This document shows, one piece after another, positions 1-17,202 of a stretch of DNA of 24,000 nucleotides. A program made the translations under genes and the position numbers. Origin of the DNA: Candidatus Hermodarchaeota archaeon (GTDB taxonomy: Archaea > Asgardarchaeota > Lokiarchaeia > Sigyniarchaeales > SOKP01); assembly GCA_048885765.1 (NCBI GenBank), contig JBHLLI010000050.1, positions 3,003-27,002 of the forward strand. Reading direction: 5' to 3'. Each line of letters starts with the position of its first letter. Positions within the stretch are counted from its first letter, which is position 1. A model generated the notes under the pieces. The model was given only the letters and a program-made list of their open reading frames with translations, did no database searches and was not told the origin of the DNA.

Positions 1-447
1 ATTTATAACAATCCTGTTAATTTGAAGGAGTTATTAGATACTTATAATGCAGTACTTATAGATTTTTTCCGAGGTACTTGGTGAACTTATTGAAAGGAGG
101 AATTAGAAAATCTTAAAAAACGTGATCAAGAGTTTAAAGAACGAAATATTAAAATCATTTCAATAGCTAGTGATACAAATAATCTGTTAAGAAAATTCAA
201 AGAAGAAAATCAATTTCCTGTTGTTATGATTTCTGATCGTGGTGCTAAGATTGCTAAAGACTATAATGTCTATTGGTTTGCTGAAGGTTGGGGAACACTT
301 AAAGTAAAACAAGCTATGCCAAGTAAATTTTTAATCAATAAAGATGGTAAGATTGTGTGGAAATACGTTGGAATAGATAAAACAGACAGACCATCAGTAG
401 GAGCAATGATTCTTCTTATTGATAAATACATTAAAAATCCCAATTAA
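1..447 (+). CDS. Redoxin / AhpC-TSA family thiol-disulfide oxidoreductase (peroxiredoxin-like); 5' end lies outside the window; candidate selenoprotein with a U-x-x-U redox motif
   Basis: Frame 1 is open from nt 1 to TAA 445-447 except for two TGA codons at 82-84 and 91-93. Translation: ...NAVLIDFFRGTW-[TGA]-TY-[TGA]-KEELENLKKRDQEFKERNIKIISIASD...NQFPVVMISDRGAKIAKDYNVYW...MPSKFLINKDGKIVWKYVG. This follows the redoxin pattern (F-x-R-G-x-W-C-x-x-C, vv-IS-D, fP-x-l-D, yGV, P-x-tF-lI-d-dG-I). The TGAs fall exactly on both Cys of the CxxC. The ORF track reports only the tail after the last TGA (226..447). Confidence 0.7.
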
Positions 448-510
448 GAATGATTTGAGTATGAAAAATCGAGATACTCATGGACTGCCTTGTGAGGGTT
501 TTGGGATTTT
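434..510 (+). promoter_or_regulatory. Candidate SECIS element (3'-UTR stem-loop) serving the redoxin gene
   Basis: Inner hairpin 456-462 (TGAGTAT) pairs with 474-480 (ATACTCA), with an 11-nt A-rich loop GAAAAATCGAG. It is flanked by 5' ATGA (450-453) and 3' GA (483-484), which could form tandem sheared G.A pairs. An outer 10-bp helix pairs 434-443 (AAAATCCCAA) with 501-510 (TTGGGATTTT). The element starts at the stop codon (445-447). Confidence 0.45.
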
Positions 511-545: not shown

Positions 546-728
546 TTATGGATTAAACCTTATATATCTAATGAAACGTTTAATCAATGAATTATATCTA
601 AATCCCGTTTCATAATGATACCCACATCTAAAACAATAATGTCGAGCACAATCCGAGCAATCTTCGCGATTTATGGAATAGTCATCCATAAAATCTCCAC
701 ATTTATCACAAATCGTACTTGATAACAT
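546..728 (-). CDS. Small Cys-rich (zinc-ribbon-like) hypothetical protein
   Basis: 60-aa ORF with three CxxC pairs (CDKC, CSDC, CFRC). No recognisable family. It is convergent with the redoxin gene. Confidence 0.4.
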   Translation of the reverse strand: MLSSTICDKCGDFMDDYSINREDCSDCARHYCFRCGYHYETGFRYNSLIKRFIRYIRFNP

Positions 729-2539: not shown

Positions 2540-3610
2540 ATGATGGAAGTTAATTCTAAACTCTTAATAGTATCTGATATTCATCTAGGTTCTTTAGATA
2601 GCGAAAGGGAGTTATTTTTACAATTTTTAAATAATATTTTGAATGGAGAGCATGGGAACAATTTACAGATACTTATTATTTTAGGGGATTTTATTGATTT
2701 ATGTACAGACGTTACAAAAACTCTATTGAAAAGAGATAAAATCCAAGAAATTTTAAACACTTTAATAGAAATTAAAAAGAAGATTAATCTCATATTAGTT
2801 CTTGGAAATCATGAAATTCCTGTTACTGGAGACTACGATGAAAAATTTAAACGTCGAAAAGAAAGATTTTTAAAACGGTTTGATAGGAGTGATTTCAAGG
2901 AATTATTTGAAAAGGAATTTTGTTGTCATTATTTAGTGTTAAAAAAATGGAACAATGAGGATATGCTTTTATTGTATGATGATAGAAATGAAATAGAAGC
3001 TAACCCTAATAATCAGGTAAGAATTCAAGGATTAGATTTGGATAATGATTATACGTGCCTTATGACACATGGTTATCAATTTGATGGCGATTTATATAGA
3101 TTCTTTGTCGGGCAAATATGGAAATCATTAATTTCCAGCAATAATTTTGAGGTTAAGGAGACATATGATTATTTCTGGAATTATATAATAAAGAATGGAA
3201 GAAAAATTAAACCAATCACTTATGAAATGATGAAGTTGGAATTGGCGAAACTAAAGAATAAATCCTTAGAATTTGTCGATAACTTATTTATAGAATTAAG
3301 TAATTTGGAATTTAATTTAATTAAAGCTAATATGCGTGTATTGAAAAGATGGCATCACGCAAGTAAACCAGATTATTATTTTGACGAAATTAAGGCTTTT
3401 TTAGAAGATGAAAATTATAATTTATCAAAAATAAATCATTTAATATATGGTCATTCACATCATAGTGGAATTTCTTATGGCACTATTAACAATCAAAGAG
3501 TTGAAATAATGAACGATGGTGCTTGGCAACATGTGCAACCCTCATATGTCGAAATTTTATCAAAAGGAATGTTAAAGTTGCGATCTTTTTCTGATAAACC
3601 TAAATCATAA
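2540..3610 (+). CDS. Calcineurin-like metallophosphoesterase with a large inserted cap region
   Basis: The ordered metallophosphoesterase motifs are present: SDIHLG (DxH), ILGDFIDL (GDxxD), LGNHE (GNHD/E), MTHGY (H) and YGHSHH (GHxH). Confidence 0.8.
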   Translation: MMEVNSKLLIVSDIHLGSLDSERELFLQFLNNILNGEHGNNLQILIILGDFIDLCTDVTKTLLKRDKIQEILNTLIEIKKKINLILVLGNHEIPVTGDYDEKFKRRKERFLKRFDRSDFKELFEKEFCCHYLVLKKWNNEDMLLLYDDRNEIEANPNNQVRIQGLDLDNDYTCLMTHGYQFDGDLYRFFVGQIWKSLISSNNFEVKETYDYFWNYIIKNGRKIKPITYEMMKLELAKLKNKSLEFVDNLFIELSNLEFNLIKANMRVLKRWHHASKPDYYFDEIKAFLEDENYNLSKINHLIYGHSHHSGISYGTINNQRVEIMNDGAWQHVQPSYVEILSKGMLKLRSFSDKPKS

Positions 3611-4344: not shown

Positions 4345-4349
4345 AGAAA

Positions 4350-5315
4350 TTATATTAGGATAACTATTACTCCTAAAATGGTTATTATAACCCCAATAAA
4401 GCCAAATCTAGATATCCTCTCCTTATTAACGAGATATGTTAACGGAAGTGCAAACAAAGGACTTGCAGTGGCTATTAATGAGACTAGGTTTGCTCCTGCG
4501 AGGTGGACTGATTCAGTATATAAATATGCACCTAAGGAGGTTCCAATTAATGACCCCCCTAATAAGAACATCCATGTATATATTGATTTCCTCTGATATG
4601 AGGGATTGGGCTTTTTTTTTATTAGATATTCTTCTCTTAATACCATTGAGCCTAAAATCATTAATGCAAATGGGAACCTAATTACATTCCCTATAATAGA
4701 ACTTAATTCTTCAACATAAATAATTTGGTCTATTTGAACAGTTGCATATTCAATTAAAACTGCCCCAATGGCCCAACCTATAGATGCTGTAAAACAGAAT
4801 CCTATTGCTTTGATATATTTTTTCTTTTGAGATTCTATTATTAAAATCTCTTGGTTTGCATTGGTATCTAGTTTTACTTCCCTAGGTATACTTTTTGATC
4901 TTCCTATAATTATTACCCCTATTCCAATCAATATGAGTGATAAAACTAAGTTGAGCTTAAATGGTTCATTAAAGAATACTAAAGATAAAATAAAAGTAAA
5001 AAGTGGAAATGTCATTGAAATAGCCAGAGCTATTGTAGTTCCCAAATCCTTTTGAGCAATAAAATAAGCAGTATCTCCGATCACCTGCCCAAATACAAAA
5101 CTTAAAATCAACAACAACCATAATTCCCAAGATACGACAAAAATCAGATTTAACTGATTTAAGATTAGAATAATAAAGAAAAATGTTAATGTACCAATAG
5201 CAGTTCGAAAAAAATTGATGAATGTTGGACTTACTTCCAATTCGGTCTTGCGGAAAATCACATTAGAAACAACAAATGTAAAAACAGCTGATATTGCGAC
5301 AAGTTTACCTAACAT
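4350..5315 (-). CDS. EamA/DMT-superfamily transporter (10 TM, two EamA halves)
   Basis: 321 aa. Two ~140-aa halves of five hydrophobic helices each are separated by a charged loop (SIPREVKLDTNANQEILIIESQKKK). This layout is typical of the drug/metabolite transporter family. Confidence 0.7.
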   Translation of the reverse strand: MLGKLVAISAVFTFVVSNVIFRKTELEVSPTFINFFRTAIGTLTFFFIILILNQLNLIFVVSWELWLLLILSFVFGQVIGDTAYFIAQKDLGTTIALAISMTFPLFTFILSLVFFNEPFKLNLVLSLILIGIGVIIIGRSKSIPREVKLDTNANQEILIIESQKKKYIKAIGFCFTASIGWAIGAVLIEYATVQIDQIIYVEELSSIIGNVIRFPFALMILGSMVLREEYLIKKKPNPSYQRKSIYTWMFLLGGSLIGTSLGAYLYTESVHLAGANLVSLIATASPLFALPLTYLVNKERISRFGFIGVIITILGVIVILI

Positions 5316-10523: not shown

Positions 10524-10898
10524 ATGGCAAAGAGAAAAACTAAAACTTCCATTGAGAAAGTAGATCTTAGTAGGAAAAAAACGAAAGAATTCGATGTAGA
10601 CACTAATATTAAAGTCGCGTATAAAACGGGTAAAATAATTTTTGGTAAAACTCAAGTTCTTAGGAGTTTACATAGAGAAAATCCCTATAAAATGCTAATT
10701 GTTAGTAATAACTGTCCAACAGATTTAATCGATGAGTTAAATAATTACAATTATCTTCTAAAAGACAAGCTTTTTATTTATAAATATAAAGGTTCAAGCT
10801 GGGACTTAGGATTAGCTTGCGCTAAGCCTTATATGATATCTATTATTGGTGTAATTGATTTTGGAGATTCAGACTTAATTTCCTTAAAAACTAAATGA
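10524..10898 (+). CDS. rpl30e: Ribosomal protein L30e (eL30)
   Basis: TGKIIFGKTQVLRSL...MLIVSNNCP...LGLACAKPY matches L30e. Its position between rpoA2 and nusA is canonical. It carries a ~20-aa basic N-terminal extension and ends with a TGA stop at 10896-10898. Confidence 0.9.
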   Translation: MAKRKTKTSIEKVDLSRKKTKEFDVDTNIKVAYKTGKIIFGKTQVLRSLHRENPYKMLIVSNNCPTDLIDELNNYNYLLKDKLFIYKYKGSSWDLGLACAKPYMISIIGVIDFGDSDLISLKTK

Positions 10899-12627: not shown

Positions 12628-13302
12628 TTAAACATGGGCAGCACCACAATAACCGCAATATTTAGCTTCAGGATTTGCAATACTTCCACATTCTCGACAG
12701 AAATTTGCTTGACTATCTACTTTAGGTTTAGGAGGAGGTCGATAAACATGCTCAACTTTAATCTCACTTAAATCTGTTCCACACTTATAACAAAACTTTG
12801 GGTTTCCTTTAACTTTCATACCACAGGTTGGGCAAGCTATAAGGACCCTTGCCCCACATTCTTGACAGAAATCCCATTTCTTTTCAAATCTTTTTCCACA
12901 TTTGTGACAGAATCTAACTTCCCCTGAAATGTATTCTAAAATGGTGATAATAAGAGCTAACACAAATAAAGTTCCAATTGGAATTGCTGGAATCCAATAT
13001 TCTTCAGGAGTGAAAACTTCTCCTAATATAAGAGCAGCCAATACAACAGTAGTTATTAAGAATATGGTCCATACCCCAATTACTCCGATTTTAATCCTTT
13101 GTTCCGACCTAAAATCTACAATTGTAGCCATAACTGATAAAATCAATAATACTCCAATAGGAATGATGGGAATCCAATAATCATAAGGCATAAAGACTTC
13201 ACCAAAAACGAGAGCGATCATTACTACAGTAACAATAGCAAATATTGCCCACAACCCTATTGTTCCTACTTTAACTTTTCTATTAGGATCATTTAACTTC
13301 AT
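12628..13302 (-). CDS. Membrane protein: duplicated 2-TM module followed by three cytoplasmic zinc ribbons (DZR-like)
   Basis: 224 aa. Residues ~9-66 and ~69-125 are clear tandem repeats. The C-terminal half contains CHKCG...CQECG, CPTCG...CYKCG and CRECG...CGYCG. Confidence 0.65.
   Translation of the reverse strand: MKLNDPNRKVKVGTIGLWAIFAIVTVVMIALVFGEVFMPYDYWIPIIPIGVLLILSVMATIVDFRSEQRIKIGVIGVWTIFLITTVVLAALILGEVFTPEEYWIPAIPIGTLFVLALIITILEYISGEVRFCHKCGKRFEKKWDFCQECGARVLIACPTCGMKVKGNPKFCYKCGTDLSEIKVEHVYRPPPKPKVDSQANFCRECGSIANPEAKYCGYCGAAHV
12928..13278 (-). repeat. Intragenic tandem duplication encoding two copies of a 2-TM hairpin module
   Basis: KVKVGTIGLWAIFAIVTVVMIALVFGEVFMPYDYWIPIIPIGVLLILSVMATIVDF aligns with RIKIGVIGVWTIFLITTVVLAALILGEVFTPEEYWIPAIPIGTLFVLALIITILEY. 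Similarity is also visible at the DNA level. Confidence 0.6.
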
Positions 13303-15234: not shown

Positions 15235-17202
15235 TTGGATGCCGACAAAAATCATAATCTCTTAGAAAAGCAACTAAAAACCTTAGGTCAGAAGATTAGG
15301 ATTGACATTCTAAAAAAATTGAAAACTAATCAGACTCCCTTGTCATTTTCAGGAATACAAAAAGAAGTATTAGGGAATGATCTTTCAACTGTGAATTTGT
15401 CTTTTCATTTAAACACTCTAAAGAAAAGTGAGTTAATAGATTCTTCTGAGGAGGGATATTCCATCACAATTTTGGGAGAGAAAATTATAGATAAGATCTT
15501 ATCAATTGAACAGATCCTAAATCAGCAAAATCAAACCAAAATGATCAGAACCTCAAAATATTCTAAAGAATTATTTGATACAACTAAAATTGAAAAATAT
15601 CTAGTTACAGAGGGTGAATTGGAGCATTTTTTAGCTAAGCAAATTGCTCGTGAAGTGGAAGAACGTCTTTCTAAGACAAATATAGAATATTTGACTGCTC
15701 CGTTAATGCGAGAATATATTAATGCTGTTTTATTAGAAAAAGGTCTAGAAGAAATAAGACATAAATTAACAAGATTAGGAACCCCTCCTTTTGAAGTGAC
15801 TAAGTTGTTTGAAAGCAGAAGAAGACAAATCAACCCTAGAATCTTTATTGAAAAGTTAGGTTCTGATGTATCTGAGCAATATTTACTACTTAATCTTATC
15901 CCTAAAAATTTAGCTGATTTATATTTATCTGGAGAAATAGCTCTTTTACATTTGAATTATTGGGCTTTGAGACCTTTAAGTCTTTATATCGATACAGAAG
16001 GAATTATGGATTATTTTTATAATGAGAATATCAACTTAAAAAATAATGGAAACAAGGAATTAAATAATACAGAATTGGTTATTCAATTTACTGATCTTTT
16101 ATATTGTTTGAAACAATTTTACTCCGAAGACTTAGTCTTAGGAAATTTTAACACTCAATTCCTTTCTGCCATTTCATTACCTAAAACAGATTCTTCTGAA
16201 TTGCTATTTTTAACCTCCCAAATTGCTAGATTCAATAATAGTTTTAATAAGACAAAATCATCTCTTACATTGGAGTTTAATAATAGAAGTTCAACAAATC
16301 AGCATCTCATTGACGAGGCTTTTTTTCTCTCTTTAACAAAAAGGTGTAAAGGCTTAATTAAACCACTATTTTTATTTGAGTATTCAAATTTATATCCTTC
16401 AGATTCTCAAAATAATAATATTCAACAATTAATATTAAGTAATTTTAGAAATAATGCTATTTTGTATAGTAAATCAATCTCAAATGTGTTTAATTCATCA
16501 TTAATACCAATATCAAATTTCCAAACAAGTCAGGTAATATTAGATAAAATATTGATCAACCTACATAGCATATCTATAGAAGCTAGGCAGAATGATGAAA
16601 AATTTTTAGAGTTATTACAAGAAAAATTATCATCCGTTTTTAAATTGTATGATTATAAAGAAAAACTAGTGCAGAAGAAATTAAATTCACTTAAACAATG
16701 GGATTTCATAGTTTCGAGTATTTTGAAAGGAAACAGGAATTATATATTAAAAGAAGCTCTGAAATCGATTAGTTTTTTCGGTCTTAATGAAGCTGTATTA
16801 CACCATTGTGGTATTGAACTTGATAGAACAGAAAGTAGTGAATCTTTTGCTTTAAAAATACTTACTTTGATGAAACAGATTATAAGTGAAAAAAATAACT
16901 CAAATGGAAATAAATTTGTGTTAAGCCAACCTCATTATGATTCTTACTTAGAGGACTCATGGCATAATGGAAAACCAGCTCTCAACCAGACTTCAGGTCA
17001 TTATACCCCAACTTTAATAAAAGATGATTGCAGTCTTTCTTTTGACAAAAAAATTCATTTGTTTAAGAAATTTCAGAGTATTTTAGACCGAGGGGCATTG
17101 TTTACCTTAAATATAAGTGAAAATGAAAGGAATATATTAAAAACTCTAAAAAATATAATTCAATGCGAGATAAGTGCTATATCATTAAAAAAGAATAATT
17201 AA
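15235..17202 (+). CDS. Fusion protein: ArsR-type winged helix-turn-helix + ATP-cone + degenerate class III ribonucleotide reductase (NrdD-like) core lacking catalytic Cys and glycyl-radical domain
   Basis: TTG start; the frame opens at 15208 and the first in-frame ATG is at 15541. The wHTH part is LGQKIRIDILKKL...LSFSGIQKEV...VNLSFHLNTLKKSELI...GYSIT. The ATP-cone-like part is MIRTSKYSKELFDTTKIEKYL...REYINAVLLEKG. The rest is collinear with NrdD blocks as recalled from memory (see findings). Confidence 0.7.
   Translation: MDADKNHNLLEKQLKTLGQKIRIDILKKLKTNQTPLSFSGIQKEVLGNDLSTVNLSFHLNTLKKSELIDSSEEGYSITILGEKIIDKILSIEQILNQQNQTKMIRTSKYSKELFDTTKIEKYLVTEGELEHFLAKQIAREVEERLSKTNIEYLTAPLMREYINAVLLEKGLEEIRHKLTRLGTPPFEVTKLFESRRRQINPRIFIEKLGSDVSEQYLLLNLIPKNLADLYLSGEIALLHLNYWALRPLSLYIDTEGIMDYFYNENINLKNNGNKELNNTELVIQFTDLLYCLKQFYSEDLVLGNFNTQFLSAISLPKTDSSELLFLTSQIARFNNSFNKTKSSLTLEFNNRSSTNQHLIDEAFFLSLTKRCKGLIKPLFLFEYSNLYPSDSQNNNIQQLILSNFRNNAILYSKSISNVFNSSLIPISNFQTSQVILDKILINLHSISIEARQNDEKFLELLQEKLSSVFKLYDYKEKLVQKKLNSLKQWDFIVSSILKGNRNYILKEALKSISFFGLNEAVLHHCGIELDRTESSESFALKILTLMKQIISEKNNSNGNKFVLSQPHYDSYLEDSWHNGKPALNQTSGHYTPTLIKDDCSLSFDKKIHLFKKFQSILDRGALFTLNISENERNILKTLKNIIQCEISAISLKKNN

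Follow-up and report, generated by a model that had tools for sequence, protein, structure and literature searches.

A conserved hairpin with a predicted kink-turn behind a two-UGA PrxL gene of an Asgard archaeon is very probably a selenocysteine insertion element of the lokiSECIS class

A 24,000-nucleotide (nt) stretch of DNA from Candidatus Hermodarchaeota archaeon (contig JBHLLI010000050.1, positions 3,003 to 27,002; below, the window) begins inside a gene for a Prx-like (PrxL) protein whose frame contains two UGA codons, and a hairpin follows at its stop codon. The locus raises the question of whether these codons are read as selenocysteine (Sec) and whether the hairpin is the signal for doing so, as had been proposed in a first-pass annotation made from the sequence. 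We found that positions 434 to 510 fold, on the sense strand, into an RNA structure that is conserved and shows covariation, and that this structure is tied exclusively to redox genes with in-frame UGA codons, in two unrelated protein families. It is very probably the Sec insertion sequence (SECIS) of a PrxL mRNA of the UxxU type and a member of the class called lokiSECIS or Asgard eSECIS-like type I, and comparison of sequences makes it most likely that it acts as a strongly conserved RNA signal for reading both UGAs of the PrxL gene as Sec. The class itself has been known since 2016, with a survey following in 2024; the element in the window is another copy of it, a rediscovery and not a new kind. 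The open reading frame (ORF) and the parts of the element, with those recovered by minimum-free-energy (MFE) folding, are listed here.

1-447, + strand: PrxL gene (UxxU type, putative Prx-like thioredoxin-fold selenoprotein), 3' part, 148 codons plus stop; from the translation and homologs in PF08534/PF00578
82-84, + strand: UGA no. 1, putative Sec codon at position 1 of the UxxU redox box; aligned with TGA in all orthologs
91-93, + strand: UGA no. 2, putative Sec codon, replaced by Cys in UxxC paralogs; from the translation and ortholog comparison
434-443, + strand: basal helix P1, 5' arm, overlapping the last codons of the ORF (K-N-P-N); 10 Watson-Crick pairs with 501-510
445-447, + strand: UAA stop codon of the PrxL gene, in the junction between P1 and the predicted kink-turn; from the sequence and translation
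448, + strand: closing G of the predicted kink-turn, partner of C485 in the -1b.-1n pair; neither nucleotide varies among 68 sequences
450-453, + strand: AUGA of the SECIS core, in which A450 and U451 form a 3-nt bulge together with A449; invariant in 68 PrxL elements and in the VhuD elements
454-462, + strand: upper stem P2, 5' strand, nine positions; from the RNAalifold consensus and covariation
463-473, + strand: 11-nt apical loop GAAAAAUCGAG with an A-rich 5' half and a terminal AG; A465-467 and G473 are invariant
474-482, + strand: upper stem P2, 3' strand; from the RNAalifold consensus and covariation
483-485, + strand: GA of the SECIS core (483-484) and C485, the partner of G448; A484 and C485 never vary in the orthologs and G483 almost never does
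487-499, + strand: small hairpin P3 (487-491/495-499) on the 3' side of the junction; from the MFE fold and the orthologs
501-510, + strand: basal helix P1, 3' arm, pairing with 434-443
507-527, + strand: T-rich tract (TTTT, TTT, TTTTT, TTTTTT); from the sequence

The gene is cut by the start of the window and is read in frame 1, giving a product that runs ...FFRGTW-U-TY-U-KEEL...IDKYIKNPN. The first-pass annotation had described a stop codon, an AUGA, a stem with a U.G pair and a U.U mismatch below it, a loop, a GA, and a 10-bp outer helix, and a direct reading of the sequence placed every one of these parts where it had put them. The AUGA begins 3 nt after the UAA stop. Read from the sequence, P2 consists of seven Watson-Crick pairs (456-462/474-480), a U454.G482 pair, and a U455.U481 mismatch, and the RNAfold MFE structure recovered P1 and P2 together with an additional small hairpin (487-491/495-499). 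From what is known of kink-turns and SECIS elements, G452.A484 and A453.G483 are candidates for tandem sheared pairs. A strict version of the motif (at least 8 of 9 stem positions paired, an A-rich loop, and AG at the loop end) was absent from all 300 dinucleotide shuffles made of the window, and the actual 24 kb contained a single copy on the two strands together. The sole other match to the pattern ATGA-9-11-9-RA in the window lies at 12819 on the minus strand, with 7 of 9 positions paired, the loop GAAACCCAAAG, and AA 3' of the stem; we rejected it as a chance match, since it falls inside a zinc-ribbon protein ORF (12628-13302) and has no covariance-model support.

We then looked at how the element is conserved in PrxL orthologs, scanning one genome per species and obtaining 68 Asgard loci. 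The first redox position was TGA in all 67 readable orthologs, which were of the UxxU or UxxC form, and Cys was found there in 0 of the 120 best homologs. All 68 loci carried ATGA, 9 positions, 11 (sometimes 12) loop positions, 9 positions, and GA directly 3' of the stop codon. In a MAFFT alignment of these loci (A2), the invariant positions were mostly unpaired ones (G448, the AUGA, A465-467, G473, A484, and C485); the closing pair U462-A474 was invariant as well, and the remaining stem positions were variable. RNAalifold found the upper stem from the ortholog alignment, with double substitutions that keep 7 of the 8 predicted pairs, and compensatory changes were present overall in 8 of 9 upper-stem pairs and 9 of 10 basal-helix pairs. 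For the structure named in the first-pass annotation plus the small hairpin, 76-82% of the cells were paired, compared with 30-49% when the partners were slid, and the observed covariation score was reached by 0 of 500 shuffles. The fold proposed from one sequence is therefore supported both by its MFE and by covariation, with compensatory changes in the orthologs.

The three helices differed in how well they could be aligned. In the MAFFT alignment, 88% of the cells were paired in the upper stem, 80% in the small hairpin, and 62% in the basal helix, the last figure being low because the alignment register shifts. MAFFT lost the register of the basal helix where the stop codon comes earlier, so that RNAalifold missed P1, which was recovered by covariance-model alignment and by MFE folds of the individual sequences. 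After realignment with R1, a covariance model built from the orthologs, the fractions were 74% for the basal helix, 89% for the upper stem, and 85% for the small hairpin, although a realignment of this kind leans towards the model. Unconstrained MFE folds of 74 PrxL elements gave an enclosing basal helix in 69, the upper stem in 65, and the mini-hairpin in 56. G.U wobble pairs occurred on the plus strand only, where they would be A.C on the opposite strand, and the structure therefore belongs to the sense strand of the mRNA.

In PrxL loci the ORF usually supplies the 5' arm of P1 with its final codons, AAU CCC AAx (N-P-N/K). The AAUCCC is kept in loci whose stop codon lies upstream of it (L014-type rows), which therefore points to a constraint at the level of RNA. 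Two observations on individual loci belong here. In 8 of the 68 loci (L017, L021, L022, L025, L037, L041, L055, and L058, each near position 3360), the usual TAA is mutated, for example to TAT, and the ORF ends two codons later at the UGA within the SECIS AUGA core of its own putative selenoprotein mRNA. One further locus (L050, DATKTW010000172.1) bears the label "Candidatus Nanopelagicaceae bacterium," an actinobacterial metagenome-assembled genome (MAG); its PrxL selenoprotein gene and SECIS are typically Asgard, and it is probably a mis-binned contig.

Next, we assessed how specific the element is to genes with in-frame UGA codons. Model R1 gave one match in the window, at 89.5 bits, with the next best at 14.8 bits (E value = 0.3). 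Across the 68 loci it found six further elements outside the training set (64-86 bits), each behind a tandem upstream PrxL paralog of the UxxC type (L003, L006, L007, L008, L010, and L012; elements at about 2617-2661 and at 3357). The closest relatives thus show the layout PrxL(UxxC)-SECIS-PrxL(UxxU)-SECIS, with a single element per PrxL gene whether the gene has one UGA or two. We also fetched 80 metagenome loci with Lokiarchaeia FrhD/VhuD sequences taken from the supplement of Huang et al. These had TGA at all readable Sec positions, and 76 of the 80 carried the same core, 14-25 nt after the stop codon in 75 and 34 nt after it in one. Over the 148 loci together (729 kb), the gene strand held 136 copies of the strict motif and the opposite strand 0, and the motif stood behind none of the several hundred other genes in these Asgard flanks.

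Genes with Cys served as a negative control. Nine loci with Cys-type redoxin paralogs (FSRYFGCPIC), some of them from the MAGs that also contain L001, L007, and L034, gave no R1 match (best 13 bits, E value = 0.6) and no structure that satisfied even the loose type I criteria of Huang et al., and their 3' ends were plain and T-rich. This control consists of paralogs only, and the "C" entries in the list of Huang et al. are distant paralogs. The first-pass annotation had expected the motif to recur behind other selenoprotein genes and had held that the same hairpin behind Cys forms would reduce it to a terminator; it does recur, behind the PrxL paralog and behind VhuD/FrhD, and it is absent from the Cys-containing redoxin paralogs of the same genomes, the Cys forms available for the comparison.

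One of the VhuD loci (L108:2943-3027) carries an element of PrxL flavour, with a G...C closing pair and ACUCUUGCAAGAGU as its P3, and is the one in which the element lies 34 nt after the stop codon; it hints at an exchange of elements between gene families.

How does the element compare with known systems? As described by Mariotti et al. 2016 (PMC4989117), whose set comprises 25 elements, lokiSECIS consists of AUGA, a 9-bp stem, and GA after the stem, with an 11-nt loop that prefers A at its first five positions and ends in an ultraconserved G, mostly following an A; it lies close behind the stop codons of PrxL, VhuU, and HdrA-VhuD genes, and PrxL.1 has two Sec residues in its redox box. According to Huang et al. 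2024 (PMC11227280), lokiSECIS was widened to an "eSECIS-like type I" in a survey of more than 400 Asgard genomes, where it is the major form for prxL, with a model that allows a stem of 7-15 bp with at most 2 mismatches and a loop of 8-20 nt. The window element has the AUGA 5' of the stem and the GA (AA is also allowed) 3' of it, the 9-position stem, the 11-nt loop with its A-rich start and AG end, and the place behind the stop codon; like the published elements, it serves a two-Sec PrxL gene, comes as one element per gene, and shares its motif with other selenoprotein families. We saw no essential difference from lokiSECIS. The supplement of Huang et al. (PMC11227280) lists UxxU Prx-like proteins of this clade, two of them with FFRGTWXTYX. 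The exact peptide of the window is not in that Prx-like list, and the copy is therefore probably from a genome that Huang et al. did not analyze.

With eukaryotic SECIS elements of type I, the window element has in common, at the level of sequence, its location in the 3' untranslated region (UTR), the AUGA...GA core with its potential tandem sheared G.A pairs, the unpaired A's of the loop, and a basal helix below the core. It differs in its shorter upper stem (9 positions, as noted for lokiSECIS in PMC4989117), in a 5' bulge of just 3 nt that is closed by a base pair, and in a hairpin on the 3' side that replaces the open internal loop. With the GAA_A SECIS of euryarchaeal methanogens it shares the 3' UTR location, the service of several UGA codons by one element, and presumably reading by the archaeal SelB pathway. 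That type has two stems, a GAA_A bulge, and G-C clamps, whereas the core in the window is AUGA/GA, and the eaSECIS-like criteria of Huang et al. returned 0 structures in 430-600, so we rejected it. The first-pass annotation had called the element a eukaryote-like, kink-turn-type 3' UTR SECIS, distinct from the methanogen GAA/A form, with one copy acting for both UGA codons. Both statements agree with what PMC4989117 and PMC11227280 report for Asgard PrxL, the function being one that is inferred. It had further suggested a bearing on the evolution of Sec decoding, a point made in earlier publications.

If the element works as we propose, the 3' UTR would fold into the basal helix, a kink-turn core (G448-C485, the bulge A449-A450-U451, G452.A484, and A453.G483), and P2 with its A-rich 11-nt loop. 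The kinked RNA would then recruit aSelB/EFSec and Sec-tRNASec, either directly or via a kink-turn-binding adaptor, and UGA 82-84 and UGA 91-93, 357-366 nt upstream, would be decoded as Sec while UAA 445-447 terminates translation.

Several points weigh against this proposal. A lokiarchaeal SECIS was non-functional in a Methanococcus maripaludis reporter (PMC11881835), and there is no experimental proof in the literature of Sec insertion by any Asgard SECIS; the inactivity in M. maripaludis would fit a lineage-specific recognition system. SBP2, which reads the SECIS in eukaryotes, has no homolog in Asgard archaea according to the literature. No Cys-form ortholog of this PrxL clade, which would have made the cleanest negative control, occurred among the top 120 homologs and the 68 loci, which all have Sec. 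Rfam gave nothing at the gathering score over the whole window and, at an E value of up to 10, no SECIS family in 380-620, where the matches were weak ones to C/D small nucleolar RNAs (snoRNAs) and others at chance level. Finally, folding stability gave a z-score of only about -1.5 to -2.1, with a fold just as stable on the minus strand, and we did not use this stability as evidence.

Some of these points would suit a different reading, in which the element is a kink-turn site for a protein such as L7Ae or L30e that regulates the translation or stability of redox-protein mRNAs and no UGA is recoded. Its core has the canonical sequence geometry of a kink-turn, the weak sub-threshold Rfam matches are to C/D snoRNA families, which are kink-turn RNAs, and both the absence of SBP2 from Asgard archaea and the inactivity of the Loki SECIS in Methanococcus would be expected. 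Against this, the element is confined to in-frame-UGA genes of two unrelated families and absent from Cys-type paralogs in the same genomes. The conserved A-rich loop, which the element has in common with eukaryotic SECIS, also counts against such a site, as it is not known to be a feature of L7Ae regulatory sites. Taken together, these points make a purely regulatory site improbable. The Rfam matches bear also on a box C/D guide sRNA gene overlapping the 3' end of the ORF; they include snoR21, at 28.4 bits where the gathering score is 45 (E value = 0.04), and other C/D families, and the terminal helix with an AUGA...GA kink-turn does resemble a C/D core. Since 425-530 contains neither a RUGAUGA C box nor a CUGA D box, nor any C'/D' boxes, and since the stretch between the would-be boxes is a covarying helix and not a conserved single-stranded guide, we rejected this reading, to which we give next to no credence. 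The sub-threshold matches reflect the common kink-turn consensus.

The element could also be a generic 3'-end hairpin, a terminator or stabilizer of the transcripts of a convergent gene pair that has nothing to do with Sec. It does lie between convergent genes, with T runs behind it at 507-527, and its equally stable fold on the minus strand would be in keeping with such a role. The T-rich tract is presumably an archaeal oligo-T transcription stop directly 3' of the element. Against such a role, the unpaired AUGA, GA, loop A's, and terminal G are invariant while the paired positions vary; moreover, the motif is missing behind the several hundred other genes of the 729 kb, and the 3' ends of the Cys paralogs are plain T-rich sequence. 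We found no pattern of a bacterial-type intrinsic terminator at the element, which also counts against this explanation, and we regard it as very improbable, more so than the regulatory site.

Beyond its identification as a SECIS, the element has a recurring architecture. The window sequence follows kink-turn geometry, with G448-C485, a 3-nt bulge, the GA/GA pairs, and then U.G and U.U, the folding in three dimensions being predicted only. Throughout the PrxL set, the invariant G448 and C485 occupy the place of the closing (-1b.-1n) pair of a kink-turn and leave the bulge A449, A450, U451 before the G.A pairs. The VhuD elements have U-A (56), U.G (6), or G-C (1) at the equivalent positions, with a C-G pair below. 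The closing pair, G-C in PrxL versus U-A or U.G in VhuD, therefore covaries between the families. RNAalifold, run independently on the VhuD set, gave a basal helix (GUGU/ACAC), a 9-bp stem, and, flanked by this stem and the 3' basal arm, a mini-hairpin (AUGG/CCAU), and the named four-helix structure was 96.5% paired, compared with 35-43% when the partners were slid. The sequences of P1 and P3 are unrelated between PrxL and VhuD, and the architecture is identical.

The same arrangement resembles the box C/D kink-turn and the k-junction. With the former it has in common RUGA...GA, a 3-nt bulge, and then non-Watson-Crick pairs at 3b.3n and 4b.4n (here U.G and U.U), and it differs in having neither C/D boxes nor a guide. 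The k-junction, reportedly defined by Wang et al. in 2014 as a kink-turn within a three-way junction, likewise has its third helix on the non-bulged strand, a likeness drawn from secondary structure only.

From these comparisons we tentatively suggest, with less than even confidence, that the Asgard SECIS may not be a simple succession of stem, internal loop, and stem but a conserved junction of three helices, with a canonical kink-turn (3-nt bulge) at its center. In such a model P1 would enclose the rest, a closing helix of 1-2 bp, the G.A/A.G core, and the 9-position P2 would follow one another, and P3 would project from the non-bulged strand. As P1 is made from the last PrxL codons, a terminating ribosome would have to melt it. 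A literature search on archaeal SECIS as a three-way junction turned up no mention of one, and the searchable text of PMC4989117 and PMC11227280, figures aside, mentions neither the G-C closing pair nor the mini-hairpin on the 3' side nor a basal helix formed by the final codons. The three-helix junction with its canonical closing pair is thus a possible refinement of the published description. If true, it would point to a generic kink-turn binder of the L7Ae/L30e type, and not to an SBP2-like factor, as the archaeal reader of the SECIS.

In eukaryotes, the protein L30 reportedly binds the kink-turn of the SECIS. The window contains an L7Ae-family gene (PF01248) at 10524-10898 on the plus strand, which by its position is the L30e of an rpoA'-rpoA''-L30e-nusA-S12-S7 operon. 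With SBP2 absent from Asgard archaea, this L30e and L7Ae are candidate readers of the element.

These results bear on annotation as well as on Sec decoding. As we read it, the element confirms the UGA-interrupted gene as a genuine two-Sec Asgard selenoprotein gene, of a sort that gene callers truncate or translate with TGA as Trp. The PrxL homologs (redoxins of PF08534/PF00578) all came from Asgard MAGs, labelled Promethearchaeota/Lokiarchaeota, Hermod-, Hod-, Thor-, and Odinarchaeota, and their public gene calls (proteins P0001-P0043) took two forms. Some begin only 3' of the second UGA, so that the product is about 110 amino acids long, and others cover the full length but show Trp in place of Sec (FFRGxWWxxW/C), evidently the product of a genetic code in which TGA is Trp; both are annotation artefacts. 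The locus also adds one more example of a SECIS class by which Sec decoding in archaea is connected with that in eukaryotes, as was published in 2016 and taken further in 2024. The sole value added beyond confirmation would be structural, namely, that two unrelated selenoprotein families appear to use one three-helix junction with the canonical kink-turn closing pair. A junction common to both would narrow the candidates for an archaeal SECIS-binding factor and defines an RNA construct, 430-515.

We detected no other TGA-interrupted gene and no second element in the 24-kb window, just an antisense-frame artefact at 4345-4719. Directly downstream, the intergenic space of 98 nt holds the SECIS and the T runs and nothing else. 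The convergent ORF beyond it (546-728, minus strand) encodes a Cys-rich product of 60 amino acids with CxxC...CxxC spacing like that of a zinc ribbon, and about 35 nt separate its end from the 3' arm of basal helix P1. The gene content of the window includes an archaeal histone, a Ras-family small GTPase, PCNA, and a split RpoA'/A'' followed by L30e, NusA-KH, S12, and S7, the content of an Asgard-type archaeon. An ORF at 15235-17202 (plus strand, 655 amino acids) joins an N-terminal winged-helix/DUF7347 domain to a fragment-like match to NrdD, an anaerobic ribonucleotide reductase, that covers only positions 283-412 of the profile, which is an uncommon combination of domains.

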